Below, one piece after another: positions 37,637-64,000 of a stretch of 64,000 nt of DNA (its first letter is position 1; each line of letters opens with the position of its first letter). This DNA is from Sulfurospirillum sp. (GTDB taxonomy: Bacteria; Campylobacterota; Campylobacteria; Campylobacterales; Sulfurospirillaceae), in contig JASFYR010000010.1 in NCBI GenBank assembly GCA_045047115.1, positions 32,001 to 96,000 of the forward strand, written 5' to 3'. Position numbers and translations under genes: made by a program. The notes below the pieces were generated by a model. That model had not been told where the DNA came from and did not search any database. It saw nothing but the letters and a program-made list of their open reading frames with translations.

Positions 37637-37639
37637 TCT

Positions 37640-38473: not shown

Positions 38474-38482
38474 TGCGTACTC

Positions 38483-39533: not shown

Positions 39534-42500
39534 TCACGCTCTTCTATGATACAGAGCATAGATATTTGGTAGATAAAAGAGGTTTAATATCGTACCCCAA
39601 AGCAAACCAAAACCCAAGGACACCGCTAAAGGTTGAAATGTCACTGCCTCTCCTGTGGCAAAAAATATAAGTGATGAGAGCCCTATTATAGTAGTCACAG
39701 AGGTTAAAATTATAGGCCTAAACCTCTTGGCTGCCAAAATAGATATATCTGCTTGTCTTTTAGCTGTTTTTATGATTGAGAGCATCAATATGCCGTCATT
39801 TACGATAACACCTGCAAGTCCCAATGCTCCGACTATAGATGGCATAGAGAGATTTAATCCCATAATTTGATGTCCAAAAAGCACACCTAAAAATGACAAA
39901 GGTATAACACTCATAACTATCAAAGTCTCTCCTATAGAGTTAAAAAGATACAAAATAGATAAAAATATCAATATAATTGCCACCACTATAGCATTTAACA
40001 TATCATTTTGCAAAATTTTCTTTTGCTTGTACTCACCTCTTAACTTATATCTCAATCCACTCTTTTTTAACTCTTTCAAAACAGGCATTATCTTCATCAT
40101 CGCTTCACCGGTAGTGCTTATATCCTGGTCGATATTTGCATAAACATAAAAATTAACTTCTCCGTCATCTTTTGTAAGTTTTTCCAAAGATTGGGTGATA
40201 CTAAAATCACATATATCTTTTATCATCACAGTTTGACCATTTTTCAGCGCTATTTTCAATGTATCAAAATCTTTTACTCTATCCTTGTACTTGGAAGATA
40301 CTTTTATATCCAACATCCCCTCTTTATCTAAAATAACACCTTTTTTCTTTTCAAGATATAGGTCGGCTATATAATTTCCTAGATATTTTTGAGTAACGCC
40401 AAGCTGTTTTCCATAGGAGTTTAGATTTAGTTTAATCTCATTAGAACCAAACTTCATATTATCACCCACAAATTTTACCGCTTTTATTTTTCTAAGACTG
40501 TTTTTTAGTTTTTTTATACCCTTTATGACTTTTTTATAGTCTGTTCCTATGACACCTATCATTATATCTGCTCGCGAGTGCCCCATTCTTCTTTCTAAAG
40601 TATTTATCTCTCTTAAGTGAAATTTTCTCTTGTATTCTTTTTTTCTTAGAAATTTTCTGAGTTTTCTTGATATTTGTCTTGAATTTTCGGTTCTGATTCT
40701 CCCTTTTTTAGCATAATAAAAACTAAGATATGGAGTTATATACTTCTCTAAAAAATTTGACGGAGCTCTTTTTTGAAGATATAGAGTTACATATCCAACA
40801 TAAGGATACATCTCAGCTCCTCCTGTTGCACTTCTTCTGTATCCCGCTGTTGAACTCACATAATCTATGAAAAACTCTTTTTTATGCTTCAAAAGATCAT
40901 TTTCTATTGTTTGTACTATCTTAATAGAGTCTTGAAGGGTTGTATCTTTCGAAGCCTTATATGTGATACTTACGGATGTTGAGTCAAACGGTTCAAACAT
41001 CTTGAACCTCAAATGCTTTAGGCTGTTATACATCAAAAATGGTGTCAAAATCAAAAATATTGTCAAAAAAAGAATCTTATGCCTGATAATAATCTTGAGC
41101 ATCTTTGAGTAGAAGGCACTTATCCTTTTCCAGGAGAGTGTATGGGCATTTTTGTTGAGTATATGTGCTGAGTGTATAGGTAAAAACAGAAAAGACTCTA
41201 TCAGTGAAGCTACAACCAAAACGCTCACTGCGATTGGTATCAGCTCCATAATCTGTCCCAATCTCCCTGTTAGCATTAAAAGAGGTATAAAAGCAAATAT
41301 GGTAGTCAAAGAGGCTATAGTTACAGGTTTTGCCATCTCTTTAGTGCCTAAAAATGCCGCCTCTTTCGGTGAAAAACCCTTCTCTATATACTGCTGTATA
41401 TTTTCACTAATCACGATAGCATCATCAACTATGATACCTATAGCTATTAACACCCCTATGAGGGAATTTATATTTACACTATACCCAGTAAGGTAAAAAT
41501 ATATAGCTCCCATAACGAAAGATGTTGGAATTCCAAGTGCTATAACCATAGCCATTCTGAAATTTATAAGCAAAAATGTCATAAGAGTGATGAGAATAAT
41601 ACCCATCAAAATATTTGATATAACTATATCGAGACGATCTTTTATAACTGTTGAATGGTCATTTCTTATATCATACTCAATTTGCGGCTTTTGAAATCTC
41701 TTTATCATCTTTTTAACTTGCTTGGAAATCTCCAGTGCATTGCCTTTTGGATTTTGAGAGATAGATAGGGTTATGGCATTTTTGCCATTCATACTTGCCA
41801 GTGTCGAAGAGTCTCTGTATCTCTTTTTTATAGTTGCTACATCTTTTAGGGAAATAACTCTGTCGTCTATATTTAGAAATGTCTTTTTGAACTCTTTTAA
41901 TACATCTTTTTTATTTTCCAAAGATATATAGTATTCCTGTTTACTGCTATCTATCTTGCCTAGTGGAAATATATACGATATATTTGGTATGACATCTATA
42001 ATCTGCTTTTGAGTCAATCCGTAAGCTTCAGCTTTTTTACCGTCAATCAATACTTCATAATATATATCCGAATCTCCGAATATCGTCACATCGGATATAT
42101 CTTTTATGCCTAAAAGTTTCAATCTTAACTCTTTGGCATTTTCTATAAGCCTGTCTCTACCAAGAGTTTTGCTAAAGACCGAAACTTGCATAAGACCTCT
42201 TGCATGTGCTACCGTACTTGTTGTTAGTTCATCCATATCACTTGGCAAATCTGATTTTATAGCTGTTATGGCATCATCGATATCTTTTTGTACTTTTTGC
42301 TTGTCTGCACCCTTTCTCAACTCCAAAGTTATAGAAAATCTTCCCGGAGTTATACGAGATGATATAGTATCGATGCCATCGATATTTTGCACCTCTGCCT
42401 CTATCTCCTCTACTGCCATCTTATTTAGAGTATCAAGTGATGTACCACTGTATCCGCCTCTTATAGTTATAGAGTCCGGTTCGATAACAGGGGAAACCTC

Positions 42501-42608
42501 TTTTGGTAAAAAGATATAACTATATACACCCAGACCAAATACAAGAAAAAATAGTATATAATTTAACTTATAATTTTCAATAAAAAATTTCAACACTCTT
42601 TCAAACAA
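39534..42608 (-). CDS. RND efflux permease (AcrB/AcrD/AcrF family), paralog of 28757-31819
   Basis: GIIVDDAIVISEN, GVIVNDGIL, RFRPIILT motifs; begins 9 nt after the activase stop. Confidence 0.93.
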   Translation of the reverse strand: MFERVLKFFIENYKLNYILFFLVFGLGVYSYIFLPKEVSPVIEPDSITIRGGYSGTSLDTLNKMAVEEIEAEVQNIDGIDTISSRITPGRFSITLELRKGADKQKVQKDIDDAITAIKSDLPSDMDELTTSTVAHARGLMQVSVFSKTLGRDRLIENAKELRLKLLGIKDISDVTIFGDSDIYYEVLIDGKKAEAYGLTQKQIIDVIPNISYIFPLGKIDSSKQEYYISLENKKDVLKEFKKTFLNIDDRVISLKDVATIKKRYRDSSTLASMNGKNAITLSISQNPKGNALEISKQVKKMIKRFQKPQIEYDIRNDHSTVIKDRLDIVISNILMGIILITLMTFLLINFRMAMVIALGIPTSFVMGAIYFYLTGYSVNINSLIGVLIAIGIIVDDAIVISENIQQYIEKGFSPKEAAFLGTKEMAKPVTIASLTTIFAFIPLLMLTGRLGQIMELIPIAVSVLVVASLIESFLFLPIHSAHILNKNAHTLSWKRISAFYSKMLKIIIRHKILFLTIFLILTPFLMYNSLKHLRFKMFEPFDSTSVSITYKASKDTTLQDSIKIVQTIENDLLKHKKEFFIDYVSSTAGYRRSATGGAEMYPYVGYVTLYLQKRAPSNFLEKYITPYLSFYYAKKGRIRTENSRQISRKLRKFLRKKEYKRKFHLREINTLERRMGHSRADIMIGVIGTDYKKVIKGIKKLKNSLRKIKAVKFVGDNMKFGSNEIKLNLNSYGKQLGVTQKYLGNYIADLYLEKKKGVILDKEGMLDIKVSSKYKDRVKDFDTLKIALKNGQTVMIKDICDFSITQSLEKLTKDDGEVNFYVYANIDQDISTTGEAMMKIMPVLKELKKSGLRYKLRGEYKQKKILQNDMLNAIVVAIILIFLSILYLFNSIGETLIVMSVIPLSFLGVLFGHQIMGLNLSMPSIVGALGLAGVIVNDGILMLSIIKTAKRQADISILAAKRFRPIILTSVTTIIGLSSLIFFATGEAVTFQPLAVSLGFGLLWGTILNLFYLPNIYALYHRRA

Positions 42609-42617
42609 TTTTACAAC

Positions 42618-43427
42618 CTATTTTTCAAGATACTCATAAGACTCATTTGCTAAAATAGCCGCACCGAAAGCTGTAGTAATTTGAGGAAATTTTGGTATAA
42701 ATATCTCTTTTGTCAACTCGTTTTCTATAGCATTTACCAAACCTATGTTTAGCGCCGGTCCACCATCGAAATAGATAGCCTCTTTTATGCCCACTCTTTT
42801 TACGAGTTTTATAACTCTTCTGGCTATAGAGTAGTGAACTCCTGCAACTATATCTTCTATACTGTAGTTATTTCCCAACAAACCGATGATTTCAGACTCC
42901 GCAAATACCGCACATGTACTGTTTATAGATAGCGGAGTGCCCTCTGATTTAAAGTGATAATCTCCTAGCTCTTCGACACCAATCTCCAATTTAAGCGCAA
43001 CTACATCCAAAAACTTTCCCGTCCCTGCAGCACATCTGTCATTCATAGCAAAATTTACCACATTTCCTTCGCTATCAAGTGAGATAGCTTTACTATCTTG
43101 TCCGCCTATGTTTATGATGGTTTTTATATCTTTTTCACCCTCAGCCATAGCAGCAGCTTTAGCTCCGATAGCATTTGCCGTGATTTCACTAATCTTCTCA
43201 TTCGCCTCCTTAAATAGTTTTCTTCCGTATCCTGTAGAGACAGTATAAGCTAAATTCTCCTCATTGACGCCCAATTCACCTAAAAGTTCGCCTAGTGCCT
43301 CTTTGGCGTATTTATAAAACATACTCCCGCTTGCATTTATCTTTTTCCCCACTAATTCCCTGTTTTCATCTATGATTGCTATCTTTATAGCGGTTGAGCC
43401 TATATCTATACCTGCAAAATATCTCAC
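42618..43427 (-). CDS. ATP-dependent [4Fe-4S] activase (HgdC/BadG/YjiL/DCCP-R family)
   Basis: GIDIGST, STGYGR, IGGQDSK, MNDRCAAGTGKF, STCAVFAESE motifs. Confidence 0.95.
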   Translation of the reverse strand: MRYFAGIDIGSTAIKIAIIDENRELVGKKINASGSMFYKYAKEALGELLGELGVNEENLAYTVSTGYGRKLFKEANEKISEITANAIGAKAAAMAEGEKDIKTIINIGGQDSKAISLDSEGNVVNFAMNDRCAAGTGKFLDVVALKLEIGVEELGDYHFKSEGTPLSINSTCAVFAESEIIGLLGNNYSIEDIVAGVHYSIARRVIKLVKRVGIKEAIYFDGGPALNIGLVNAIENELTKEIFIPKFPQITTAFGAAILANESYEYLEK

Positions 43428-44692
43428 TATCTTCTTCTCCTTCTGTTTTTAAGTGACTCTATAAACGCTTCTATTCTCGTTGTTAGCTGTCCCAAATGAC
43501 TCGGACTGTAATCACTCTCGAGATATAAGATAGGAATTCCCTCTTTTTCCATAGCTTCTATAACTGATCTCTGCTCCATCTCATAAACCTGGCAACCTGC
43601 AAAAGCCTGATATACAACACCTTCCGCTTTGTACTCCTTAACCAACTCTATAACTCTTCTAACTCTATCATGATTTTTTGTGAAAATTGGACAAGTACAC
43701 CCTTTTAGGTATCTGTCCGCAACTGCATCAACCATATCATACAAAAACCACTCATCAACACTAACCATATCATTAAAAAGTCTATTTGCCGAACAGGTTT
43801 CATCTGCTACTATTATGCCGTCTGACTGCTCTATAAGTAAAGGAATTTTAAGATTTGGAAAGATTGGAGGAGAGCCCGTATATACAACTCTAGGACTATT
43901 TTTATGGGTCTTATCTTCTGTTTTTATTCTCTGCTTGCACTCTTCATACAGTCTTTGTATTGCCTCTATCCAGTCATCTATCCTGTCAAAAAAGAAGGCA
44001 TTTGTAACTAAAAACATATCTTTTCCCAAAATAGGAGGATTTGGCTCTCTTCTTAATTCATTTAGTTGATGATAAAGGTATTGGGCATAACCTATCTTTT
44101 GGATGACTTTTTTCAGTTTTGTTTTTTTTAATTTCTTGCCCAAATTCTTTGAGAGATTTTTTGTAAATTTTCTTACACTTCTTCGCCAATACTCCCTGCT
44201 CTCTTCACTCTCTTTTGTGCGTGGAAATTCCATATCATATACGAGATAACCCATATCTTCTATAACCGCACCTAATTTTGATTTTTGATCACAGGTAGTA
44301 GGAGATATGACAAAATCGGGCTTATCACTAAAGTTTTTTGAGCTAAATTGACCGATTGTAGCCTTGATTAGAGGACAAGCTTTAGACGGAGCTAAATCAC
44401 TTCCAATCTCATCATCTGTATAAAATCCATTGCAGAGCCTTATGGGAACTGCATCCAGTGCGTAAATAATCTCATAAGGAACCTGTATGCACATCGTTCC
44501 TACTTTGACACTTTTTTTATGAAGAGCCTCTCTTTTACAATAAACTCTCTCATACAAATCATAAAAATAGTCCATATTTTTAGGAGGCTCTATGAAATCG
44601 TGCCTGATTTTATCAAGCATGGATACTGCTTCCATAGCCTTATGACGATTTTGTTTATCTTTAGGAGTTTCTATATCTCTTTTGTGCCTCAT
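43427..44692 (-). CDS. 2-hydroxyacyl-CoA dehydratase-fold protein, probable double-cubane cluster reductase (DCCP/YjiM-like)
   Basis: Single 421-aa subunit with Cys motifs in both halves (GTMC, IRLC, ACPLIK, TTCD, DETC, GCTCP, AGCQ) and the C-terminal LESDYS...GQLTTRIEAFIE. Confidence 0.85.
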   Translation of the reverse strand: MRHKRDIETPKDKQNRHKAMEAVSMLDKIRHDFIEPPKNMDYFYDLYERVYCKREALHKKSVKVGTMCIQVPYEIIYALDAVPIRLCNGFYTDDEIGSDLAPSKACPLIKATIGQFSSKNFSDKPDFVISPTTCDQKSKLGAVIEDMGYLVYDMEFPRTKESEESREYWRRSVRKFTKNLSKNLGKKLKKTKLKKVIQKIGYAQYLYHQLNELRREPNPPILGKDMFLVTNAFFFDRIDDWIEAIQRLYEECKQRIKTEDKTHKNSPRVVYTGSPPIFPNLKIPLLIEQSDGIIVADETCSANRLFNDMVSVDEWFLYDMVDAVADRYLKGCTCPIFTKNHDRVRRVIELVKEYKAEGVVYQAFAGCQVYEMEQRSVIEAMEKEGIPILYLESDYSPSHLGQLTTRIEAFIESLKNRRRRR

Positions 44693-45672
44693 TTCTTCTC
44701 TTCTCCAATCTTGTCTACTCTCATCCTCTTTGCAAATCCATCTTTTGTAGAAGTGAAAACTTTAAGTTTAAATATATCTACATGCAGAGCATCCTCTTCG
44801 GGACAGGCCGCTACACACTTCATGCAAAAGATACAGTCATCTCTGAGTATATTTTTACTATTTACATCATCTGCTATATCTTTTATCTGCATATCGCATA
44901 CATTGTAGCAATCTCCACACTTTGTGCATTTGTCTCCATCTTTTTTGAGCCTCAGCAGTGCCCAATCACTAAAGATATAGTGCATTGCACTCATAGGACA
45001 GTAGAAACAAAAAAATCTTTTTTTGATAAAAGAACCCACAAAAAACAGAACTGCAAATGTCACACCAAAAGCTGTCAAAAACAGTGTCGTACCTGTTGAA
45101 AAGTCTATTGTCCACTGCGAAAAATCACCCATAAACAGTGGCGTTATGAGTCTGCCCGGACACATCTTGCAAAATGCACCTCTCCACTGTGTATCTAGCA
45201 GTTCAAGTCCTAGCATCAATGGAAATATGATAACTATAAAAAGGAAAACATATTTGATTTTCTTTAAAAATTGATACTGAGAGCGTGTATATGTGTTATA
45301 GGGTATCTTCAAAAACTTTCTCAAACTTGTTATCCAATCTTGCATAGTTCCCAAAGGACAGGCATATCCGCACCAAGCTTTATTAAAAATTATAAACCAG
45401 GCTAAAAAAGTTAAAAAACCGCTCAAAACACCTATGCTAGCATAGCTAAAAAGCCTACTCCAAGGACGGGCAAGCTGATGTTGCAAACCCAAGAAATAAC
45501 AGTTTCCTCCTGTTTCCCTTGCATACCCACAAGAAAATATAGGCAGGCTTCTTCCCAAATCTATAGCTAAATATCCGCCATACACAAAAACTACAAAGAA
45601 AAACAGTTGCAACCAAAATCTAAATTTTCTCAAATCTCCATGATTTATAAAATCTTTTATCTTACTCATCAA
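44689..45672 (-). CDS. Polytopic membrane 4Fe-4S binding protein (NapH/RdxA-like)
   Basis: WCGYACPLG, FCFYCP, CTKCGDCYNVC, CIFCMKCVAACP motifs; several TM segments. Confidence 0.9.
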   Translation of the reverse strand: MMSKIKDFINHGDLRKFRFWLQLFFFVVFVYGGYLAIDLGRSLPIFSCGYARETGGNCYFLGLQHQLARPWSRLFSYASIGVLSGFLTFLAWFIIFNKAWCGYACPLGTMQDWITSLRKFLKIPYNTYTRSQYQFLKKIKYVFLFIVIIFPLMLGLELLDTQWRGAFCKMCPGRLITPLFMGDFSQWTIDFSTGTTLFLTAFGVTFAVLFFVGSFIKKRFFCFYCPMSAMHYIFSDWALLRLKKDGDKCTKCGDCYNVCDMQIKDIADDVNSKNILRDDCIFCMKCVAACPEEDALHVDIFKLKVFTSTKDGFAKRMRVDKIGEEKK

Positions 45673-47974
45673 AAGTCACCTCACGAAATGGCTTTTGGAC
45701 TTTATATCTATACATAAAGACTCCCGCACTGATAAAAATAAGTAGCAACATAGCTACAATTAAAGCATAAGCAAAAGATTGATAAGCTTCTTTTGAGGGT
45801 ATATATATATCATTGTAACTCACTTTGTAAGAAATATTTTTATCTTTATATGTAGCTACTACTAAAAACTTCTCTTTAAATCTCTTGTTGAACTTATCCC
45901 ACTTTGGATTATAATCTTTTATAAGTTGAAATTTTACTATGCCGTCTCCACCCGATCTGGCACTCTTTTGCCAGCCAAATTGTGTCTTAAAACTTACTTT
46001 TGCGCCTTCAAGAGGTTTACCATCTTTTAAAACTTTAAATCTTACCTCATCCCCGCTGTGTAGCCTATAGTAAAAAGAGTCTTCGTTATCTCTTAGTCTT
46101 AATATATCAAACCCGACCTCTTTTGTAGTTTTTGAAGATATCTTATCTTTTGAAAATATCTCATCCCCTCCATGGTCAAATCTCTTATACTCGTATTTTG
46201 CAACATTGATAAATCGCTTGTTATTTTTAACATAGTACAGCGTATAGTATCCGCTTTTCGGGACTTTAAAAGTGATATTCGCACAACCCCTATCATCTCC
46301 TATCTTTGCATCTGATAAAACTCCGTCAACATTTAAGAGATAAAAAATTCCATCTGCATTTTTTACGCATTTTGGTCTTGCTAACCTCCGAGATACGAGC
46401 CAAAATGTTCGTGTTTGCACACCCTCTTTCGCTCTATTCATATACATCATGCCCATACCGCCTTTTCTTTTAGCAGTAGGATTTCTATCTGTAAAAAAGA
46501 GAGTATCTTTTGGTTTTACGACAATTGCCGCAACTTTGGACTTGCCCCCGGCATGGTGCATTTTACCCCTCTTGGCTCTACTGCCGTGCATACCGCCACT
46601 TGCTCTTGCGTATGTACTCGTGATATGCGCCCTATACTGATTTACACCAAAATAGAAGATGATAAGCATGGCTGCAAACGGAAATGCCACTATCTTTCTT
46701 AACTTATCCGCTTTTATCAATTTAAATCTTTTATATAAAATCACCAGTGCCCAGATGATAGCCACCCACTTGAAGATGTTGAATATCATCAGCCAGTCAT
46801 CACCCCTCTTTGCCAAAGGCGCTACTTTCATACTAAAACCAAAAGCCCAGGCAAAACCCTCTACTATCCTCTTGTATCCTCTTGTAAAAAATCCGCTTAA
46901 TGCATAACCTAAGGACGCAAATATAAAAAGAGGTGCATAAGAGTAGCCAAGATTGTAAAATACATCTTTAAAAGGTTTTTTGAGTATTTTTGAAGCTATA
47001 TACATTCCGACGGTTGCCGCCAAAATTGTAAACACCATAGCATAAAGATAAGCAAAAAGTCCTACCGTATCAACATCTCTCCCAAACAGAGGCTTAAATA
47101 TCTCTGCGCTCTTATACCAAATCATATCTTTAGCCGCTTTACTGCGATCTATACCGTGATGAAATGCCATAGCTATCGGTATGGATGCGAGTATCAGTAT
47201 ATATGCCCAAATCTCTACTTTTAGAGCTTTAAATTTACCAAACAAAGAGGATGACGGCTTTTTAAACTTGAAATTTACAGACTCGCATGCACTTGTACAC
47301 TCCATACATAAAGTACAATCTTCCATAGAGTTTTTTTTATCAAATGTAAAAGGCTTTAAGTTATACGGGCAAGCAGTAGCACAATCAAATGTCTTACATT
47401 CCCTACATGCACTTTTGTAAGTACCAAGCCTTGCAAAAGAAAGCTTTGAAAATGCTCTTGTTACCGTACCTATGGGACATATATATTTACAATAGCTCAT
47501 ATCTTTATACAAAAAGTAAAGCAAAAATGCCAATACACTCATAACTGTAAAAAGCATTGCCGTTCCAAGCGGAGTTCTATAGACTCCAGGATATATGTAG
47601 TAAACTCCCCACCAGCCAACTACAAGTAGAAGCAGACCGATAAAACGGTTTTGCATCCACTCTGGCATACTTTTTTTAAGACCAAATTTTGTGATATATT
47701 TACCCAAAAATCCATGAGGACAGATACCGCAAAATATCCTTCCAAATGTCGGCAGAGTTGCAACCATAAAAAAAGACCAAAACATACCCCAAAACAGAGC
47801 AAAGGTGAAGAGATTGTTTTTTGAAGTATCACTAAAACCTAAAAAAATAGCATAAAAAAACAACCCAAACACAACAACTCTTAAAGCCAATAGAAACTTT
47901 TGATTCTTAAATAAAAAACCGAGGATCTTTTTATTTAATATATCACTTTTATCTCTCTTTATAAAATCTACCAC
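45662..47974 (-). CDS. Polytopic membrane 4Fe-4S binding protein with a large C-terminal extracytoplasmic domain
   Basis: FCGICPHG, YCKYICPIG, CRECKTFDCATACP, CTLCMECTSAC; His/Met-rich linker; FKVLKDGKPLEGAKV...DGIVKF segment (DUF4198-like); C-terminal TM. Confidence 0.85.
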   Translation of the reverse strand: MVDFIKRDKSDILNKKILGFLFKNQKFLLALRVVVFGLFFYAIFLGFSDTSKNNLFTFALFWGMFWSFFMVATLPTFGRIFCGICPHGFLGKYITKFGLKKSMPEWMQNRFIGLLLLVVGWWGVYYIYPGVYRTPLGTAMLFTVMSVLAFLLYFLYKDMSYCKYICPIGTVTRAFSKLSFARLGTYKSACRECKTFDCATACPYNLKPFTFDKKNSMEDCTLCMECTSACESVNFKFKKPSSSLFGKFKALKVEIWAYILILASIPIAMAFHHGIDRSKAAKDMIWYKSAEIFKPLFGRDVDTVGLFAYLYAMVFTILAATVGMYIASKILKKPFKDVFYNLGYSYAPLFIFASLGYALSGFFTRGYKRIVEGFAWAFGFSMKVAPLAKRGDDWLMIFNIFKWVAIIWALVILYKRFKLIKADKLRKIVAFPFAAMLIIFYFGVNQYRAHITSTYARASGGMHGSRAKRGKMHHAGGKSKVAAIVVKPKDTLFFTDRNPTAKRKGGMGMMYMNRAKEGVQTRTFWLVSRRLARPKCVKNADGIFYLLNVDGVLSDAKIGDDRGCANITFKVPKSGYYTLYYVKNNKRFINVAKYEYKRFDHGGDEIFSKDKISSKTTKEVGFDILRLRDNEDSFYYRLHSGDEVRFKVLKDGKPLEGAKVSFKTQFGWQKSARSGGDGIVKFQLIKDYNPKWDKFNKRFKEKFLVVATYKDKNISYKVSYNDIYIPSKEAYQSFAYALIVAMLLLIFISAGVFMYRYKVQKPFREVTFDE

Positions 47975-47984
47975 TACCCTCTCC

Positions 47985-48644
47985 TTAAAACATCAGGTTT
48001 TTATTTAGTATGCTTAAGCCTAAAACCACTAAAAACAGAGCTGTAAATCTCTCAACCCATAACTTGTATTTTGCAAATTGCACCAAAACACCCCTTATAA
48101 ATTTTGAAAAAATAAAACCATAAAAAAGTATAGAAAAAAGTACAGCCCCTATACCAAAAAATATGCCGACTCCAACAGCATCATATATAGCGTTGCTATT
48201 CATAGCAACTGCCAAAAGTGTGAGTATGGGAGCACAAGGATTTAGAGACATCATTGCTCCTATAGTAAAGAAGCCTATCTTGTTTGTTTTTTTCTTTTTA
48301 GCATTAAATGGTGTTACGCAAGAGTCCTTGTTCGCAAAACTCTTATAAAAAAGATACGCACCCATAATCATAGTAACAGTGCCCAAAAGAGTATTTGATA
48401 CAAGCGTATCATCTAAGATTTTTTTCACCCAAGAAGAGCTTAGATATGCAATCACCGCCAAAATTGTATAGCTAAAAACTCTTCCAAAACTAAAAGGCAA
48501 TATAACTCCCAAAGCTTCTTTGGTGCTATTTGAATTTGATATAAGCAGAGGTGTTAAAAACGGCATGCATGAAAACATACATGCCGTAGTGCCATAAGAT
48601 AACCCTATGATAAAAACAGAGAAAAATATTGAGTATTCAATCAT
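47985..48644 (-). CDS. DsbD_2 (cytochrome c biogenesis / UreH-like) membrane protein
   Basis: About 6 TM segments; ACMFSCMP, GRVFSY and LNPCAP correspond to the CxxxC / GR..SY / PC pattern. Confidence 0.78.
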   Translation of the reverse strand: MIEYSIFFSVFIIGLSYGTTACMFSCMPFLTPLLISNSNSTKEALGVILPFSFGRVFSYTILAVIAYLSSSWVKKILDDTLVSNTLLGTVTMIMGAYLFYKSFANKDSCVTPFNAKKKKTNKIGFFTIGAMMSLNPCAPILTLLAVAMNSNAIYDAVGVGIFFGIGAVLFSILFYGFIFSKFIRGVLVQFAKYKLWVERFTALFLVVLGLSILNKNLMF

Positions 48645-48652
48645 GTATTCTC

Positions 48653-50827
48653 TTAAAATTTGTACTTAAATCCAACATAAAAAACACGACCCGGGTCAAC
48701 TGTGATACTTGCATCTTCCGCATCAAGTGTTCCATCTCCACTTTTGTCACTAAAGAGATAAACTGTTCTGTAATATTGTTTGTCAAGTAAGTTATCTACT
48801 CTAGCAAAAAGCTCCAAATCGCCACCTTTGATTTTTGTGTTATATTTGACCAGTAAATTTGCAACACCATATGACGGCATTTTTACAAAATTTGTCTCAT
48901 CTGCATAGTAGCTTGACTGCCAATAGTAAGATGGAACAACCATCCATTTTGGAGCAACTTTAAAATAAGTCATGAGATTTATCTTGTGATGCGGAGTTCT
49001 AGGCAGCTGATTTCCGTTTATGTCATATGTTTTATCTCCAGCAGAACGATAAAGAGGAGCCAAATCAACCGTAAAAGGCTTATGGGAGGTATAAAAAGCA
49101 TCTAAATATGTATAGGCCAATTCAAAAGCAATTTTTTTACTTTTGTCACTCTTTAGTGAAAACTCAACTCCTCTGCTTCTTGCATCACCGATATTATCAA
49201 AATACACATTTGTTCCACCCGAATAGTAAGTTCCTCCAATTTTTCCGATTATATCTTTTGTATCCAGTTGATAAATTGACAAATCATAAGATAGTTTCGT
49301 ATTTGAGACTATCTTATTTCCTCGCACACCAATCTCAATATTAAATGTTGTTTCAGTGTTTATGCCTGTATTATTTTGAGTATATCTGTCTGGATCAAAA
49401 TCATGTGCATACAGCTCATAAACCCTAGGATTTCTAAATCCTGTAGAGACATTTGAGTATAGTGTATTTTTTGCATTTAGTTGATATGTTCCGCCTGCTC
49501 TGTATGAAAAGTTTGTAAAATCCGTATTTCTAGAAGTAGTGCTATCACTCCATATAGTACCATTATAGTCATGTGCGAAAACATTATAATCAAAAGTTGT
49601 GTAGTCTGCCCTTACATTAAATACTGCCATAAATTTTTCATTTACCTTGTATTTGACCTCTCCATAAAGAGCTGAGTTTTTTTCAGATGTACTTGACTTG
49701 GAAGACTCTCCCGTATAGTACCACTTTCCTCTACTTGAATAGGTTTCAGTCTTAATCCAACTATCGTCCAAATCTCTTTGACCCAAATCCAATCCTATCA
49801 TATATGCAAGATTATTTTTTTTGCCTCTGTATTCTGATTTCACCCCATACTGTTTTATATTTTCATTATTATCACTGGTATAGCCATCATCAAGCCCATT
49901 GCCGTTTAAATCTTGAGGGGATGATAAAAAATTATACAGGTCTTGATAGTGATATGTATTTACTCTTAAATTTCCTCCATTTTCAAAATCCCTGTTGTAT
50001 GTCACAAAATATTTATCTATATCAGAATAATAATCACCATTCCAAGGCAAATCACCATCATTAGCACCTGTTGGGTTCGTTTGTGCTGCCGTAACTCCAG
50101 TGACACTTCCCCTACTGCTCTCTTCGTATTTTCTTTCTATGTTGGCACCAACTGTTACATCACTCATATCATCTATGTAGTATTGAAATTTTCCGTTTAC
50201 AGACTTATCTTCAAGTTGACTCATATCCCAGTAACCATCAGTATATCTATAATTTGCATTTATACTAACTGAATATTTATCAGTACCTCTCATCAATGAT
50301 GCCACCAAATCTTTGTAATTTTCACTACCATATTCAAATTTGATACTATTCTCATTTCTATTTTTTGGTTTTTTTGTAGTTATCATAATAGCCCCTGCCA
50401 ATGCATTTCTTCCATATAGGTAACTAGCACCGCCCTTTATAACTTTGATGGACTCTATATCATCGAGATTTAATTTCACCTTTCCTCCGTTTTGAAGAAC
50501 AGGAACACCATCTATCACGACAGCAACACCGGTATCTTCCCACATAAACTCTTGCTGACCAACACCTCTTATGTGTATCTCAACAGTCTCTCCACTTCTT
50601 ACATCAGCGGTAATGCCGGGAATTGTATTTAGAACTTCTCCTATATTTTTTGGATCTACTATTTCTATCTTCTTTTCATCTATTGTATTAACCGTAGAAA
50701 TCTCTGTTTTTTTATCTGTTGTTAAATCAGAAATAGTTGATGATTCAACATTGACAGTCCCTAAATCAGCTGCATTTGCACTCATTAATAAAACACAAAA
50801 TACAGACAAATATACCTTTTTACTCAT
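48653..50827 (-). CDS. TonB-dependent receptor
   Basis: Signal peptide, TonB-box-like TVNVES, plug IRG...VVIDGVP, IESIKVIKG, NLLDKQY, C-terminal F. Confidence 0.95.
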   Translation of the reverse strand: MSKKVYLSVFCVLLMSANAADLGTVNVESSTISDLTTDKKTEISTVNTIDEKKIEIVDPKNIGEVLNTIPGITADVRSGETVEIHIRGVGQQEFMWEDTGVAVVIDGVPVLQNGGKVKLNLDDIESIKVIKGGASYLYGRNALAGAIMITTKKPKNRNENSIKFEYGSENYKDLVASLMRGTDKYSVSINANYRYTDGYWDMSQLEDKSVNGKFQYYIDDMSDVTVGANIERKYEESSRGSVTGVTAAQTNPTGANDGDLPWNGDYYSDIDKYFVTYNRDFENGGNLRVNTYHYQDLYNFLSSPQDLNGNGLDDGYTSDNNENIKQYGVKSEYRGKKNNLAYMIGLDLGQRDLDDSWIKTETYSSRGKWYYTGESSKSSTSEKNSALYGEVKYKVNEKFMAVFNVRADYTTFDYNVFAHDYNGTIWSDSTTSRNTDFTNFSYRAGGTYQLNAKNTLYSNVSTGFRNPRVYELYAHDFDPDRYTQNNTGINTETTFNIEIGVRGNKIVSNTKLSYDLSIYQLDTKDIIGKIGGTYYSGGTNVYFDNIGDARSRGVEFSLKSDKSKKIAFELAYTYLDAFYTSHKPFTVDLAPLYRSAGDKTYDINGNQLPRTPHHKINLMTYFKVAPKWMVVPSYYWQSSYYADETNFVKMPSYGVANLLVKYNTKIKGGDLELFARVDNLLDKQYYRTVYLFSDKSGDGTLDAEDASITVDPGRVFYVGFKYKF

Positions 50828-50892
50828 TGTGCCACACTCCTTTTAATAATAATTACTCCAGGACACCACTCCTGGTTTTTTGCGATAAAAGA

Positions 50893-50984
50893 AGTTTAGC
50901 AATGATCTGTTAATCATCTGTTAAATGTTTAATTTTTTCGTCAAAAAATTCATTAACACATTTTTAACACTCTATTGATAAACT
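50893..50984. promoter_or_regulatory. Divergent promoter pair, each with a TTAACA-N5-TTAACA direct repeat 9 nt upstream of a TAAACT -10
   Basis: Minus strand: repeats 50924-50908, -10 at 50898-50893. Plus strand: repeats 50953-50969, -10 at 50979-50984. Confidence 0.6.
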
Positions 50985-50990
50985 TCGATA

Positions 50991-51656
50991 ATGAGAAAAA
51001 AGAAAAAAGTTTTATTGCTTGAAGATAACCTTCTGTTTGCCCAGACACTACAAGAGTATTTAGAAGATAAAAATTTTATAGTTGACATCTCAATAGACGG
51101 GGAGGAAGCACTTCAAAAAAGTTACTATACAAATTATGACCTATATCTTTTGGATGTAAAGGTTCCAAAGATAAACGGTATGGATTTTTTAAAAATGCTC
51201 AGAGAGAGCGGAGATGAGAGACCTGCCATGTTCATAACTTCATATCAGGACTTAGAGACTCTTAAAAAAGGCTATATGTTGGGTTGCGATGACTATATGA
51301 AAAAACCTATCGACTTAGAGGAATTATCATATCGCATAGAAGTCCTTCTTAAAAGCAGAAACAAACTGAACACAAAAATGAGATTGAACGATAAGTACTA
51401 TTATGATTTTAAACAAAGAACTATATTTTGTGATGATATCGCTATCAAAGTCTCTATGAAAGCCATACTGTTACTGGAGATTTTTTTGGAAAACAGATCT
51501 AAAGTTGTCACAAAAGAGCAGATAGTGCAAAAGCTTTGGAGTAGTTCGGATGAATACAGTGATGGTTCTATCAGAGTATATGTCAACAAACTAAAAAGCA
51601 TAATAGGTAAAAAAAGTATTGAGAATATAAAAGGTATAGGCTATAAGTTAACTTAG
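50991..51656 (+). CDS. OmpR-family response regulator
   Basis: LLED, LLDVKVP..NG, DDYMKKP receiver motifs; winged helix IRVYVNKLK...GIGYK. No adjacent kinase. Confidence 0.94.
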   Translation: MRKKKKVLLLEDNLLFAQTLQEYLEDKNFIVDISIDGEEALQKSYYTNYDLYLLDVKVPKINGMDFLKMLRESGDERPAMFITSYQDLETLKKGYMLGCDDYMKKPIDLEELSYRIEVLLKSRNKLNTKMRLNDKYYYDFKQRTIFCDDIAIKVSMKAILLLEIFLENRSKVVTKEQIVQKLWSSSDEYSDGSIRVYVNKLKSIIGKKSIENIKGIGYKLT

Positions 51657-51685: not shown

Positions 51686-53710
51686 GTGAATAAGTATTTG
51701 GTGATTGCTATTTCGCTAGCGGCGGCAGCACATATATGTGCTGCTCAAAGTGTAGATTTAGACAAGATTACTGTACAAAGCACGGTGATAAAGACAGAGG
51801 TAACAAATGTATCAGGAGAGGATTTAAAGTCGGCTGACTTGGCAGAGGCTTTGACAAAGACAGTTCCTAGTATAACGATTCAAAGAAGAAGCGGTATAGC
51901 AAATGATATAATCTTAAGAGGACAAAGAAAAGACGATATCAATGTTATCATTGATGGAGGAAAGATATATGGAGCCTGTCCAAACAGAATGGATCCGCCT
52001 ACTTCACATATAATCACAAATAATATAAAAGATGTTGAAGTCATAGAGGGACCTTATGATGTTGAGGATTTTGGAACACTTGGTGGTGCTGTTAAAGTTA
52101 CCACAAATCAACCCACAAAAGATCCGCACGGCAATGTAAATCTCAATATGGGAAGTTGGGGGTATAAAAAAGCTTCAGCATTTATAAGTGGGGGGAATGA
52201 TAATGTGAAAGTACTTGTCGGAGCCTCAACAGAACAAAGTGACCAATATAAAGATGGCTATGGACATACTTTGGCCGAACAGTTAAAAATTGCAACGGAT
52301 GGGACACCAAATGCTCCAAAACAATACAAACCATCAGAATTTAATAGGGAAGCCTATAAAAAAACATCTTTTATGGGAAAAGTTTATATCAATATAACTG
52401 ATAATCAAGAGTTAAGACTCGGATATACAGGTAATAGAAGCGACAATATCCTCTATCCTTCAACTCCTATGGATGCCATATCGGATGACTCTAATCTTTA
52501 TAATATCCAGTATATCGCTAAAAATCTCGGAAAATACTCAGATAGACTCAATTTTAAATACTACTACTCAACCGTAGATCATCCAATGACAACTCAATAT
52601 AGACTTATGAGTGGTGGGGCAGCAGGTACAGTAGCCAATGTAATGAGTTCAACCATATATGGAGCAAAGCTGAACAATGACTTTCATATAGATGATACAA
52701 AAATCACCTATGGTATAGAAGCGAGCAAAAGAAACTGGAATGGAACATACTATAAAGACTACACAACAAATCCAATAGTACTAAATGCAAGTATCCCTGA
52801 TGTAGATACTACAAATTTTGGTCTTTTTGCAAAAGTAAAAAAGAGTTACGGAAAGTTTGATGTCAATGGTGGTTTAAGATATGACCACACTAAGATAGCG
52901 GCTGGGAACAGTGATCCTGACAGTAATTTCAATGACTTAAGCGGATATCTCTTTACATACTACAATCTAAACAATAACTTCAAATACTTTATTGGTCTTG
53001 GAAAATCAATAAGAGTACCTGATGGCAAAGAGACTCACGATAGAGGTAAAGACTTAACCGGTGCTACTGATGGGCCTCTTATAGGAAATCCCTATCTAAA
53101 AGAGACAAAAAACTACGAGACAGATCTCGGTATTGAAGGCACATTTGACAACAGCACCTTTAAAGCAAAAGTTTTCTACTCAATTTTAAAAGATTTTATT
53201 GTTTACAATGCTACTGCTACTCAGTATCAAAATACAGATGCAAAGATATACGGTATAGAGTTTAGCGGATCATACTTTGCTACTGATGATCTCTATTTTG
53301 ATTATGGCATAGCTTATCAAAGAGGCAAAAAAGATAGTCCACTAGCAGGACAGACAGATACAAACTTGCCATCCATTCCACCTGTGAAAGCAAATATAGC
53401 CGTCAATTACGATGTTGATTCAACTCTAAGTTTAAAAGCTGAGGTTGTAGCATCTGGCAAATGGAGCAGATATGATTCCGACAATGGCGAACAAGAGATC
53501 AACAGCTGGAGTGTCCTGAATTTAAAAGTAAGCAAAGATTTTTACAAAGGATTTAATATCACTTTGGGAGTCGACAATCTATTTGATAAAGCTTATGCCG
53601 TATCAAATACCTATAAAGACCTAAATCTAGTAGCCGGATCAACAGGGGATGTTATGCTTCTAAATGAACCTGGTCGCTACTTATACGCAAACTTATCATA
53701 TAAATTTTAA
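51686..53710 (+). CDS. TonB-dependent receptor, OprC/NosA-like copper receptor
   Basis: Plug GACPNRMDPP (CxxxM) and barrel VDHPM (HxM), the copper-binding motifs known from Pseudomonas OprC; C-terminal F. Confidence 0.85.
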   Translation: MNKYLVIAISLAAAAHICAAQSVDLDKITVQSTVIKTEVTNVSGEDLKSADLAEALTKTVPSITIQRRSGIANDIILRGQRKDDINVIIDGGKIYGACPNRMDPPTSHIITNNIKDVEVIEGPYDVEDFGTLGGAVKVTTNQPTKDPHGNVNLNMGSWGYKKASAFISGGNDNVKVLVGASTEQSDQYKDGYGHTLAEQLKIATDGTPNAPKQYKPSEFNREAYKKTSFMGKVYINITDNQELRLGYTGNRSDNILYPSTPMDAISDDSNLYNIQYIAKNLGKYSDRLNFKYYYSTVDHPMTTQYRLMSGGAAGTVANVMSSTIYGAKLNNDFHIDDTKITYGIEASKRNWNGTYYKDYTTNPIVLNASIPDVDTTNFGLFAKVKKSYGKFDVNGGLRYDHTKIAAGNSDPDSNFNDLSGYLFTYYNLNNNFKYFIGLGKSIRVPDGKETHDRGKDLTGATDGPLIGNPYLKETKNYETDLGIEGTFDNSTFKAKVFYSILKDFIVYNATATQYQNTDAKIYGIEFSGSYFATDDLYFDYGIAYQRGKKDSPLAGQTDTNLPSIPPVKANIAVNYDVDSTLSLKAEVVASGKWSRYDSDNGEQEINSWSVLNLKVSKDFYKGFNITLGVDNLFDKAYAVSNTYKDLNLVAGSTGDVMLLNEPGRYLYANLSYKF

Positions 53711-53762: not shown

Positions 53763-54185
53763 ATGGATTTACTCTTCTTAAAAGAGATGGTTGACTATGG
53801 AATAATAGGGTTTTTGGTTTTACTTAGCATCATATCTTTGACATTTTTTATAGAGAGATTAATTTTTTATAAAAAAATAGATACTACAAAATACAAAAAT
53901 CACAAAGTGCTCGAAAACAGACTTACAAAACACTTGACTATCATAGGTTCAATTGCCTCAAATGCACCATATATTGGTCTTTTAGGCACAGTAATGGCCA
54001 TCATGATAACATTTGCCACAATCGGAAACAGCGGACTTGATGCCGCAAAAATCATGAGCTCCATTGCATTGGCTCTGAAGACTACTGCTGTCGGTCTGGT
54101 CGTAGCTATATGTTCTATGTTTTTTTACAATATTCTAGCAAGGTTTACAGAAACTATATTGGCAAATTACGATGAAGAAATTTGA
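53763..54185 (+). CDS. exbB: TonB system energizer ExbB
   Basis: ASNAPYIGLLGTV and ALALKTTAVGLVVAI motifs. Confidence 0.94.
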   Translation: MDLLFLKEMVDYGIIGFLVLLSIISLTFFIERLIFYKKIDTTKYKNHKVLENRLTKHLTIIGSIASNAPYIGLLGTVMAIMITFATIGNSGLDAAKIMSSIALALKTTAVGLVVAICSMFFYNILARFTETILANYDEEI

Positions 54186-54540
54186 CTCTATCAATGTTGT
54201 TCCTTTTATAGACATAATGTTGGTGCTGCTGGCAATTGTTCTGACAACATCAACATTTGTAGCAAAAGGCATAATACCCCTCGAACTGCCACAAGGAAAT
54301 GCTAAAAAATTGGCTAAAAACAAAAGTATTACTATCAGCATAAAAAAAGATGGCAAAATATACCTTGATCAGCAAGAACTGACAAAAAAGGGACTCGAAA
54401 ATCGTCTTGAACTTATGAGCAAAAAATCAATTATACTCATCAGGTGTGATAAAAACTCAAAATTTCAATCTTTTGTTACCGTACTAGAAGAGTTAAAAAA
54501 TCTAAATTATGAAAATATCTCTATAGTTACAAAAAAATAA
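54172..54540 (+). CDS. exbD: TonB system protein ExbD
   Basis: INVVPFIDIMLVLL motif. Confidence 0.95.
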   Translation: MKKFDSINVVPFIDIMLVLLAIVLTTSTFVAKGIIPLELPQGNAKKLAKNKSITISIKKDGKIYLDQQELTKKGLENRLELMSKKSIILIRCDKNSKFQSFVTVLEELKNLNYENISIVTKK

Positions 54541-54542
54541 AA

Positions 54543-55232
54543 ATGCGTTGCTTTTTCTCTCTTTTTACTTCTATAATCATACATTCGTTCATATTTATAG
54601 GTTTGATTTTCTCATATCAAACTATAAAAATGCCACAAAAAAAAGAGAGGATAATATCCATAAAAACTATCAAATTTCAAAAACCTAAACCTAAGTCTAA
54701 ACCAAAACCAAAGCCTAAACCAAAGCCTAAACCAAAGCCTAAACCAAAGCCTAAACCAAAGCCTAAACCAAAAAGAATAATAAAAAAAATTATCCATAAA
54801 CCCAAGCAAATAAAAAAAGAATTAACTTCGGTAGAGCCAAAAAAAGTTTTTCCTAAAACTATAAAAAAAGATATTTCTAAAAAGACAGTAGAAAAAGTTG
54901 AGGATAATTTAACCAAATCAACTCCAACATATCAACCAAAAATTGATTTGAAAGCTAAATATTTAAAGTATAATTACAAAAAGATACTATCCTCCATCAA
55001 AGACTCAAAATTCTATCCGAGAAGAGCAAAAAAACTCCATATACAAGGAGCTGTAAAGATAAAATTTTTACTAAAAAAAGATGGCTCTGTAGTAATCGAA
55101 GAGTTAATTTCCAAAAAAAGGTTTCTCAAAAAGGCAACTAAAAAAATTATCGAGAAAGCAAGTATCTATTTTCCTAGACCACCGGAGGATTTAAGCATAA
55201 AAATAACTCTGGTATTTAAATTACAAGATTAG
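54543..55232 (+). CDS. tonB: Energy transducer TonB
   Basis: SIIIH TM motif, (KP)n linker, YPRRAK...QG.V C-domain. Confidence 0.92.
   Translation: MRCFFSLFTSIIIHSFIFIGLIFSYQTIKMPQKKERIISIKTIKFQKPKPKSKPKPKPKPKPKPKPKPKPKPKPKPKRIIKKIIHKPKQIKKELTSVEPKKVFPKTIKKDISKKTVEKVEDNLTKSTPTYQPKIDLKAKYLKYNYKKILSSIKDSKFYPRRAKKLHIQGAVKIKFLLKKDGSVVIEELISKKRFLKKATKKIIEKASIYFPRPPEDLSIKITLVFKLQD
54705..54764 (+). repeat. 12-bp tandem repeat AAACCAAAGCCT x5 (KPKP) in tonB
   Basis: Five perfect units read directly. Confidence 0.9.
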
Positions 55233-55866: not shown

Positions 55867-55911
55867 AATCCACCTCCTGTGAGGCTCCACATGTAGAGCC
55901 TCTTGTATCTT

Positions 55912-56337: not shown

Positions 56338-56347
56338 AATATCCCCC

Positions 56348-57647: not shown

Positions 57648-58337
57648 TTATCTACCCGACAGGTATAGTGCAACAGCTTGGAAAGGCTTGCCTTTTATCT
57701 TTCCACACAAATTGTGCTCTTTTATATATGTTTTAGCAACAGCAGGATTACTAAATCTCTTTTCTGTCATCTTGCACTTTTTATTGTATATCTTTCTGCC
57801 CATTTTTGCCATTTTTGCCTGCTTTTTCTTTATACCCATCATCTCTTTTTTAAGATTTTTCTTTACCATTTTTTCAAGTTTTGCATACTTCATAATCTTT
57901 CCGCCAAATTTTTTGGCAAAAGCCTGAGCTGCACTTTTTGTTCCAAAAGCATACTTACTCACCATAGACATCGTTCCTGGTTTTTTTGAACCTACGACAT
58001 AAAATGCTTTTGTTGCATTTATAAACTTCAAAGTTGTATTATCAACTACTTCGGGATCAACCGGATCACCACCGTTTTTAACCGCCTCTTCTACCATACA
58101 GTGTATAGAGCAGTATTGATGAACTTTTCCATTAACTTTTGCTGCGTGATTTGTTTTGTAAAACATAGGAAGTGTCATACCACAAACCTTACAGAACATT
58201 TTGCCTTTTCCTTTTTGTACAATCTGTGCTTTTTGCATTGGAACTGCTCTAAAGTTTTTCATTTTCATATTTTTTTGCATACCGCCTGCTGATAAAAACA
58301 TAGAAAATGCCACTAAAACAAATAAGAATTTTTTCAT
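57648..58337 (-). CDS. NosL family protein
   Basis: Signal peptide, CKVCGM, YCSIHC, AFYVVGS..PGTM, AF....A..FAKKFGG. Confidence 0.88.
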   Translation of the reverse strand: MKKFLFVLVAFSMFLSAGGMQKNMKMKNFRAVPMQKAQIVQKGKGKMFCKVCGMTLPMFYKTNHAAKVNGKVHQYCSIHCMVEEAVKNGGDPVDPEVVDNTTLKFINATKAFYVVGSKKPGTMSMVSKYAFGTKSAAQAFAKKFGGKIMKYAKLEKMVKKNLKKEMMGIKKKQAKMAKMGRKIYNKKCKMTEKRFSNPAVAKTYIKEHNLCGKIKGKPFQAVALYLSGR

Positions 58338-58433
58338 TTTTACTCTCCTTGAAATTTTTCGTAATTGTATTTAATATTTGTTAAATTTGTATTAATTAAC
58401 ACAAATTTAACAAATATTTGATAATATTTCGCC

Positions 58434-63148: not shown

Positions 63149-63204
63149 AAAAAATTCCTTAATAATTTTTATGTTATAATATTACCATACTAAAACAAAA
63201 GGTT

Positions 63205-63897: not shown

Positions 63898-64000
63898 AAA
63901 AGAGGGGCTTCTTAGTTTCTTTTTGGTCTCTTTAACACTTTTTTAACGATAGCGACTCAAAAGAAACTCTACTTATAGTAAAATTCACCATAGACTATTA

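Follow-up and report, generated by a model that had tools for sequence, protein, structure and literature searches.

Why a TonB-dependent receptor, a DsbD-family membrane protein and two polytopic iron-sulfur proteins should be encoded side by side with an ATP-driven reductase of the double-cubane type is the question raised by seven tightly packed minus-strand genes at positions 39534 to 50827 of a 64,000-nucleotide (nt) stretch of Sulfurospirillum sp. DNA (assembly GCA_045047115.1, contig JASFYR010000010.1, positions 32,001 to 96,000), hereafter the window. All seven are open reading frames (ORFs) located where an earlier reading of the letters (the sequence-only reading) had placed them, and Pfam and NCBIfam bear out the families that it had assigned. 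The first gene (48653..50827) encodes a 724-residue TonB-dependent receptor, TBDR1, with Pfam Plug and TonB barrel domains and not of the OprC type, and is followed by genes for a 219-residue DsbD_2/CcdA-like protein with six transmembrane (TM) helices, a candidate Cu(I) permease or thiol electron carrier (47985..48644; PF13386), a large polytopic Fe-S protein of 770 residues (45662..47974; Fer4_5 and sub-threshold DUF4198), a NapH-like membrane Fe-S protein of 327 residues (44689..45672; Fer4_5 and 4Fe-4S dicluster), a 421-residue single-subunit HGD-D protein resembling DCCP, the double-cubane cluster protein (43427..44692; HGD-D 311.8 bits), a 269-residue ATPase of the HgdC/DCCP-R type, the activase (42618..43427; BcrAD_BadFG 180.5 bits), and a 1024-residue RND permease (39534..42608; ACR_tran 453 bits). 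Counted from TBDR1, the junctions are gaps of 8 and 10 nt, overlaps of 11, 4 and 1 nt, and a gap of 9 nt. The seven genes are a conserved unit, and we give about an even chance to the proposal that this unit is a copper-acquisition operon of sulfur-cycle Campylobacterota with a built-in ATP-driven reductase of very low potential.

Scanning one genome per species revealed 231 HGD-D relatives, and 80 loci (L001-L080) were retrieved, 43 of which have full flanks of at least 8 kb upstream and at least 5 kb downstream and serve as the base for the gene-family counts. A NapH-like gene is present in 43/43 of these loci, DsbD_2 in 42, the activase in 41, a TBDR1-family receptor in 35, the large Fe-S/DUF4198 family in 34, ExbB/ExbD in 26 and the RND gene in 17, and a homologue of the response regulator found next to the operon is adjacent in 10. 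Most loci (31) have two NapH-like units for each DCCP pair, and the 34 large Fe-S/DUF4198 representatives comprise 14 of the size found in the window, 13 with an insert of ~130 residues and 7 in which the periplasmic part is a separate protein. Since the same neighbors recur across the 43 loci, the gene arrangement is not due to chance, and the recurrence across genomes that the sequence-only reading had anticipated is borne out. The carriers are mostly Sulfurimonas, Sulfurovum, Sulfuricurvum, Arcobacteraceae and Sulfurospirillum, together with a few Gammaproteobacteria (Sedimenticola, Methylococcaceae), and include two cultured strains with complete genomes, Sulfurimonas sp. CS5 and Sulfurovum sp. 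CS9. Among 400 sampled other genomes of the phylum, an HGD-D orthologue (63-78% identity) occurs in 17, and the two genomes in that sample that belong to the genus of the window both lack it, so the operon is an accessory, patchily spread unit.

The gene that sets this unit apart encodes the 421-residue protein, which by its sequence is a single-subunit protein of the DCCP type with its own HgdC-type ATPase and of which an [8Fe-9S] cluster and ATP-dependent reduction of acetylene, azide or hydrazine would be expected. Its score against the double_cubane model NF040772 is 335.7 bits, as against no more than 85 for BzdN and HadC, and its best solved relatives are the DCCP structures 7yyl and 6eno (E 7e-60), and the cluster cysteines C68, C87, C106, C134, C300, C334 (C332/C334) and C367 align with those of DCCP and are invariant in 32 orthologues. 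The seven-cysteine pattern reported for DCCPs, CX19CX18-19CX29CX166-170CX32-34CX32C (10.1101/2022.07.06.499078), is recognizable with spacings of 18, 18, 27, 165, 33 and 32, three of which are one or two residues short. The likeness to DCCP and DCCP-R of Carboxydothermus hydrogenoformans (6ENO, 7YYL) thus extends over the single-subunit HGD-D fold, the aligned cluster cysteines and an HgdC-type ATPase with two cluster cysteines, whereas the protein described here belongs to a sister branch, has slightly shorter cysteine spacing and is set in a TonB/membrane Fe-S operon. The activase scores 225.3 bits against TIGR00241 (cut-off 125.4), its nearest solved relatives are HadI (4eht, E 5.5e-62) and DCCP-R (7yyl_E, E 3.3e-39), and it has just two cysteines, C132 and C172, each in a conserved block of the alignment with HadI.

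The Pfam HGD-D match and an activase closest to HadI would also be expected if the protein were an ordinary subunit of a 2-hydroxyacyl-CoA dehydratase or benzoyl-CoA reductase that had come to lie in this gene order fortuitously, but the probability of this is vanishingly small. The protein scores about 80 bits against the corresponding models (84.6 for BzdN, cut-off 453.8; 77.1 for HadC, cut-off 700) where the cut-offs stand between 450 and 700, and the genome holds no partner HGD-D subunit of the kind found in two-subunit (alpha/beta) dehydratases. Only two PF06050 genes are present in the genome, and each adjoins a PF01869 gene, its own activase, which rules out a dehydratase partner encoded elsewhere and agrees with the single catalytic subunit proposed before. 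No CoA-transferase or acyl-CoA gene was found by the Pfam scan of the 35-64 kb part of the window, as had likewise been claimed, and the neighborhood is kept in all full-flank loci. Model scores, genome content and conserved neighborhood together refute an ordinary dehydratase or reductase subunit for practical purposes.

The second double-cubane gene of the genome (contig C21:15330-19060; L083:6330-10060) scores 454.3 bits against the NCBIfam double_cubane model, above its cut-off of 350, and with its own activase adjoins a TusA-DsrE fusion, SelD (342.5 bits) and a DUF2461 protein. This placement agrees with the DCCP-SelD association described in the Haft preprint and suggests that the protein may act in the activation of selenium or sulfur. 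In ~30 genomes of one genus, the match to this SelD-type paralogue has a single in-frame stop codon, TAG or TAA, in much the same position, which could be a conserved break, two genes or read-through.

Two of the membrane proteins of the operon carry Fe-S motifs, and both are predicted from sequence to place their 4Fe-4S motifs on the cytoplasmic side. The 327-residue protein shares with NapH four TM helices, CX3CP motifs and two 4Fe-4S motifs, and all of its 16 cysteines are invariant in 31 sequences. Its CX3CP (C101/C105), its CxxCP (C222/C225) and its two ferredoxin motifs are predicted to be cytoplasmic, and C48, C58 and the pair C168xxC171 are predicted to lie in two periplasmic loops; these last four cysteines have no counterpart in NosH of the same genome. 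The protein scores 75.1 bits against the NapH equivalog (cut-off 234), the 770-residue protein scores 34-35 bits, and the Pfam scan found no NapG within the operon. A role of NapH-like proteins in moving electrons across the membrane has been proposed, and NapH-like and PepSY-like carriers with DUF4198 partners have been surveyed (10.1101/2021.01.07.425746).

The N-terminal part of the 770-residue protein is NapH/CcoG-like, with two CxxCP-type and two 4Fe-4S motifs, and is followed by five more TM helices (modeled at pLDDT 80-95), a His/Met-rich linker, a domain of DUF4198 fold and a C-terminal TM anchor. Within the linker (residues 457-521, 65 in all) His and Met make up 14% of residues as against 3.5% elsewhere. 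The Pfam score for DUF4198 (PF10670) is 31.4 bits, below the cut-off of 34, and Foldseek matches the beta-sandwich domain (model pLDDT 80-93) to Zcp with Cu, Zn or Co bound (9mhm; E 4.1e-07, TMt 0.61) and to the Ni-bound DUF4198 protein 9gcb (E 8e-05); Zcp has a site of three histidines, and in the present domain H601 is the only invariant one. Zcp is the first characterized DUF4198 protein and acts in periplasmic metal capture (PMC12663993); the fold is common to Zcp, other DUF4198 proteins and the C-terminal domain described here, which differs in being fused to a membrane Fe-S protein. The overall build, polytopic with Fer4_5, two 4Fe-4S clusters and a C-terminal periplasmic beta-sandwich, recalls that of CcoG (FixG) (PMC7558416). 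This likeness is one of architecture only: the 770-residue protein has five extra TM helices and a periplasmic domain of DUF4198 fold, the CcoG/FixG family is absent among its Pfam and NCBIfam matches, and its best NCBIfam match is NapH at 35 bits. For its TM segment 245-460, the best scores in the ESM Atlas (0.76-0.81) are below a meaningful level. The DsbD_2 protein scores 76.3 bits against PF13386 (cut-off 24.9), placing it in that family; across 22 sequences C26 and C137 are invariant and C22 (of the CxxxC in 'CMFSCMPF') and C109 nearly so, and a structure search found no solved relative.

Import by a TonB-dependent receptor, which the sequence-only reading had claimed for some specific extracellular molecule, is part of the conserved set, as is an RND pump, and stands; the open choice of cargo narrows to copper or a copper complex as the most likely one. 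The nearest solved structures to TBDR1 are YncD, PqqU and receptors of the CntO/FoxA type, the ligands of which are small organic molecules or metal chelates, and its scores to siderophore, heme, PqqU and B12 receptor models are weak. The divergent upstream neighbors of the operon, all on the plus strand, are an OmpR-type response regulator with no kinase adjoining (50991..51656; Pfam and NCBIfam), a second, 674-residue receptor of the OprC/NosA type, TBDR2 (51686..53710), and ExbB, ExbD and TonB (53763..55232; Pfam). TBDR2 aligns with OprC (6fok) at E 1.3e-30, and C98, M102, H299 and M301 correspond to C143, M147, H323 and M325 of OprC, the CxxxM of the plug and the HxM of the barrel, so that the copper ligands of OprC/NosA are kept by a receptor lying outside the seven-gene operon, while TBDR1 lacks the motif. 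All four OprC ligands are also kept in the four TBDR2 orthologues of the loci, and the score of TBDR2 against TIGR01778 is 202.3 bits, below the equivalog cut-off of 472.45.

Copper is also suggested by NosL, a family of Cu(I) chaperones of N2O reductase (PMC7558416). Pfam detects a NosL insert in both long forms scanned among the ~900-residue orthologues of the 770-residue protein (L009 and L013), an alignment of 27 large Fe-S proteins shows the insert in 11, and the long form occurs in 13/43 full-flank loci. In the window the 770-residue protein is without the insert and NosL is a separate gene ~10 kb away, which encodes a stand-alone 229-residue NosL-domain protein (57648..58337, minus strand; PF05573 55.2 bits) that is 38-54% identical to the inserts in 20 loci. 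A divergent gene encodes a 375-residue protein with two NosL domains (58434..59561, plus strand; PF05573 155.4 bits in two stretches), and stand-alone NosL copies are found in the flanks of L009, L015, L033, L034 and L070. Just past the end of the window lies a complete clade II nos cluster, in which nosZ with a cytochrome c domain (G000:C10:96106-98709) is accompanied by NosD, by electron-transfer genes of the Fe-S and cytochrome c kinds, by an ABC ATPase and an ABC-2 permease, and by NosL-domain genes.

The operon, the NosL genes and nosZ are linked by a direct repeat, TGTTAA-N5-TGTTAA. The window contains five copies as against 1.54 expected, a number reached in 1 of 100 shuffles, and all five lie in three promoter regions: an inverted pair between TBDR1 and the response-regulator gene (50908-50924 on the plus strand, 50953-50969 on the minus strand), which is also found in the closest relative, L002; a pair between the two divergent NosL genes (58379-58395, plus; 58396-58412, minus); and a copy upstream of nosZ (63932..63948, minus), whose start is ~160 nt beyond the window end, with a second copy just outside the window. 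Of 27 matches in the window's own genome (2.14 Mb), 14 are intergenic, and six of these 14 are in the three regions. The 80 loci (1.24 Mb) contain 108 matches, 82 of which lie within 300 nt upstream of operon genes, and where upstream sequence is available, 38 of 43 TBDR1-family genes have the repeat within 300 nt upstream. In four other genomes all 21 exact matches are intergenic, compared with 2 matches of a reversed control pattern, and the genes that follow them are three operon-head receptors, two OprC-type receptors (CPNRM, HPM), two NosL genes, nosZ, DsbD_2, ccoN (647.5 bits, cut-off 583), TonB, two ExbB and a few unrelated genes. The repeat is conserved across several families of the phylum. 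This putative regulon unites the two main copper enzymes of these bacteria with copper chaperones and uptake machinery, from which we infer that copper is the signal, and the OmpR-type response regulator is a candidate for the protein that binds the putative operator. A Crp/Fnr (Nss) site was considered and rejected: the element is a direct repeat with an 11-nt period, in contrast to the published Nss consensus TTGA-N6-TCAA (PMC11539149). Between the repeat and the TBDR1 start codon lies a GC-rich hairpin (CCAGGA...TCCTGG) followed by a T run (50858-50875); scans for sigma-70 promoters and terminators gave counts at the level of shuffled sequence (64 against 69.8 and 12 against 9.0, respectively).

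The OprC-type neighbor, the NosL fusions, the His/Met-rich linkers, the DUF4198 fold and the direct repeat common to the operon, nosZ, ccoN and NosL are together the reason why copper is favored as the cargo. The same machinery could in principle serve another metal or metallo-cofactor (cobalt or a corrinoid, nickel, zinc or iron), in which case the low-potential step would be, for example, the reduction of Co(II) to Co(I) or the freeing of a metal by reduction from a tetrapyrrole or a chelate of very high stability. Low potential is chemically sensible for cobalt and for Fe(III)-catecholates, the DUF4198 fold has matches among structures with Zn, Co, Cu and Ni bound, without distinction, and the weak matches of TBDR1 are spread over siderophore, heme, PqqU and B12 receptor models. 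We nevertheless consider another metal quite unlikely, as neither the window nor 14 related loci yielded any riboswitch, cobalamin riboswitches included, at the gathering thresholds of Rfam, and the NosL inserts, the OprC ligands, the Met-rich linkers and the repeat shared with nosZ, ccoN and NosL genes point to copper.

The presence of an RND pump and of a DsbD-family protein, together with the increased copper sensitivity that follows loss of CcoG (PMC7558416), could suggest an envelope system for copper tolerance or redox repair in which the pump and the DsbD_2 protein remove copper or repair thiols. Such a role is very improbable, given that a TonB-dependent receptor heads the operon, that ExbB/ExbD accompany it in 26/43 loci, that the direct repeat is common to uptake receptors and copper chaperones, and that the RND gene is missing from 26/43 loci and is not of the CusA type. 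NCBIfam multidrug models score the RND protein at 419 bits as against 226 for the heavy-metal (HME) model, and the best 60 listed solved relatives are all multidrug-type pumps, with no CusA or CzcA among them. Export of copper by a CusA-type pump is thus not supported, the nearest relatives being pumps for organic substrates. No membrane-fusion or outer-membrane partner adjoins the RND gene in the window; complete sets of outer-membrane (OEP), membrane-fusion (MFP) and RND genes occur in L046, L077 and G071.

For copper acquisition, the following sequence of events is proposed. TBDR1 would import a copper species, probably a complex, into the periplasm, the bare ion being left to the OprC-type neighbor, and the periplasmic domain would hold that species. 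In the cytoplasm the activase would use electrons from ferredoxin and ATP to charge the DCCP-like cluster, which would pass low-potential electrons to the cytoplasmic clusters of the NapH-like proteins; from there the invariant cysteine sets on both membrane faces would hand them on to the periplasm, where bound copper would be reduced or released. Cu(I) would then go to NosL-type chaperones or enter the cell through the DsbD_2 protein, and the RND pump would expel the spent organic ligand. The organic-substrate type of the pump fits this last step, yet the pump is missing from more than half of the full-flank loci.

The direction of electron flow separates this scheme from that of the sequence-only reading, in which membrane-derived electrons pass to the activase. 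Such a flow is not supported, and the opposite direction, from the DCCP-like protein to the membrane Fe-S proteins, is favored on three grounds. The locus L024 contains a sister module (L024:533-5887, minus strand) of TonB receptor, DUF4198, NapH-like, DsbD_2 and TonB genes with neither DCCP nor activase of its own, divergent from a DCCP-bearing module with copies of the direct repeat between them; there are usually two NapH-like proteins per DCCP pair; and CcoG, a NapH-like protein, is a terminal Fe-S cupric reductase for cbb3 oxidase assembly whose electron donor is stated to be unknown (PMC7558416).

What DCCPs do physiologically is described as unknown, but they reduce small inert molecules in vitro, and their cluster cannot be reduced by dithionite or Ti(III) citrate (PMC9351452). 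The in vitro activity gives some ground to the scheme of the sequence-only reading, where a small molecule, such as an organometallic compound or a chalcogenide, is imported and finds its terminal reductase, the DCCP-like enzyme, in the cytoplasm, the NapH-like proteins serve only to supply that enzyme with electrons taken from quinol or the periplasm, and the product leaves through the RND pump. That scheme resembles the model for the SAO locus; phylogenetic profiles and gene adjacency link DCCPs both to a metal-uptake/efflux locus and to SelD (10.1101/2022.07.06.499078), the second DCCP of the genome adjoins SelD and a TusA-DsrE protein, and NapH is a quinol-linked electron carrier (10.1101/2021.01.07.425746). 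Against it, no inner-membrane protein that could import a bulky substrate is encoded in the operon, where there is only the six-TM DsbD_2 protein, and the DCCP-less module of L024 and the two NapH-like proteins per DCCP pair suggest that the membrane proteins do the terminal job. Quinol is, moreover, far too positive to reduce the activase. We regard a terminal reductase in the cytoplasm as an unlikely alternative.

Returning to copper acquisition, a more specific role can be suggested for the DCCP-like protein, tentatively and with the odds clearly against it: it may be an ATP-driven injector whose low-potential electrons, sent across the inner membrane by the NapH-like proteins through their invariant cysteine sites, would break up an otherwise inert copper species held on the DUF4198/NosL domain in the periplasm. 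Candidates for this species, of the kind to be expected where water is sulfidic, are a cluster of copper sulfide and a chelate that binds copper very stably, a guess made from chemistry.

Several observations weigh against the copper-acquisition proposal as a whole. Regarding the metal, the GACxxxM copper motif occurs in 0/45 TBDR1-family ORFs, TBDR1 included, an OprC-type receptor is near the operon in only 3/43 full-flank loci, and the metals bound in vitro by DUF4198 proteins are Zn, Ni and Co as well as Cu (PMC12663993). Of 16 genomes checked, only 6 have the repeat before nosZ, three of them without the operon, and the name copper regulon is an interpretation of its membership. Moreover, nosZ is present in only 9/17 carrier genomes, compared with 148/400 overall, so that the system is not dedicated to N2O reductase; with none in the 10-kb flanks of the 80 loci either, nosZ was rejected as an obligate partner. 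Regarding the reductase, the 421-residue protein scores 335.7 bits against NF040772 (double_cubane), 14 under the family cut-off of 350, and its chemical need is unexplained, since reduction of Cu(II) to Cu(I) requires no ATP-driven potential below that of ferredoxin. Regarding the electron path, flow in either direction is hypothetical, the proposed route across the membrane through the cysteine sites includes no demonstrated spanning cofactor, and the membrane topology comes from a hydrophobicity scan and the positive-inside rule only. Finally, the predicted complex of the NapH-like and DCCP-like proteins speaks for their docking, but its score is weak (median ipSAE 0.44, best control 0.00): the runs agree in at least 89% of contacts with partner pLDDT of at least 83, and the mark used for such scores is reached by 116/157 solved and 2/215 mismatched pairs, but at scores of 0.60 or below only 18/157 solved pairs reach it, and the two successful mismatched pairs both belong to this range.

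A few features of the surroundings are recorded here. A MoxR/DUF58/DUF4381/VWA/VWA (Bat-like) gene set occupies 35404-39436 on the same strand as the operon, 97 nt past the RND gene; beside the operon it is common only to the closest relative, L002. On the other side, three tandem HSP20-family genes (55282-56794, minus strand) lie between the TonB gene and a gene for a Crp/Fnr-type regulator (56902-57573), and a chemoreceptor, a PAS histidine kinase and a second OmpR-type regulator are encoded between the NosL genes and the nos cluster (59604-63897). In one other genome (L131, G071:C1:1088001-1108000), the direct repeat heads a PqqD/ATP-grasp/PLP-decarboxylase/urea-transporter-M23 set beside the operon, with an OEP, MFP and RND pump between the two; the PqqD/ATP-grasp/PLP-decarboxylase set could be a metallophore pathway. 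A metallophore biosynthesis cluster as a conserved component was rejected, as neither the 80 loci nor the window's genome has anything corresponding to this set of the one genome G071, apart from a single decarboxylase match of 28% identity elsewhere in the window's genome.

The proposed logic is that of iron release from pyoverdine in Pseudomonas (FpvA, FpvG, FpvCF, PvdRT-OpmQ), a periplasmic and reductive process that employs a receptor, an inner-membrane reductase, a capture protein, an ion importer and a ligand-recycling pump. The likeness is confined to logic; the protein families and the metal differ, and no ATP-driven reductase is involved there. Nearer in composition is CrtA-CrpH of Bordetella pertussis, where a TonB-dependent receptor and a membrane reductase in one operon are linked to the supply of copper to heme-copper oxidases (PMC13038864), and the direct repeat described here likewise precedes ccoN. 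The reductase of CrtA-CrpH is a heme PepSY_TM protein, in contrast to the Fe-S NapH/CcoG-like proteins with DUF4198/NosL, the DsbD_2 protein, the RND permease and the ATP-driven DCCP pair of the present operon. In the SAO locus, too, a DCCP and its activase have a metal-uptake system, an efflux pump and Cys-rich carriers as neighbors, but the locus has an ABC importer and selenoproteins, belongs to strict anaerobes and includes no TonB, NapH-like or DUF4198 components (10.1101/2022.07.06.499078). In the literature, we found no description joining a DCCP pair to TonB uptake and none linking 2-hydroxyacyl-CoA dehydratase, TonB-dependent uptake and copper; the supplements of the Haft and flavinylation preprints may list such clusters. 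The additions made here are the direct repeat with its regulon, the fission of the NosL gene and the periplasmic cysteine set.

The operon gives the DCCP pair a defined, conserved and apparently copper-regulated setting, and it bears on the missing electron donor of CcoG-type cupric reductases. The conserved direct repeat is a handle for studies of the regulon and its signal. If the DCCP-like protein is indeed an injector of low-potential electrons, double-cubane proteins would have a natural function for the first time, and metal harvest would have a new mode, in which ATP powers reductive release outside the cytoplasm. The copper supply of denitrifiers and microaerophiles living where sulfide locks copper up bears, in turn, on the emission of N2O.

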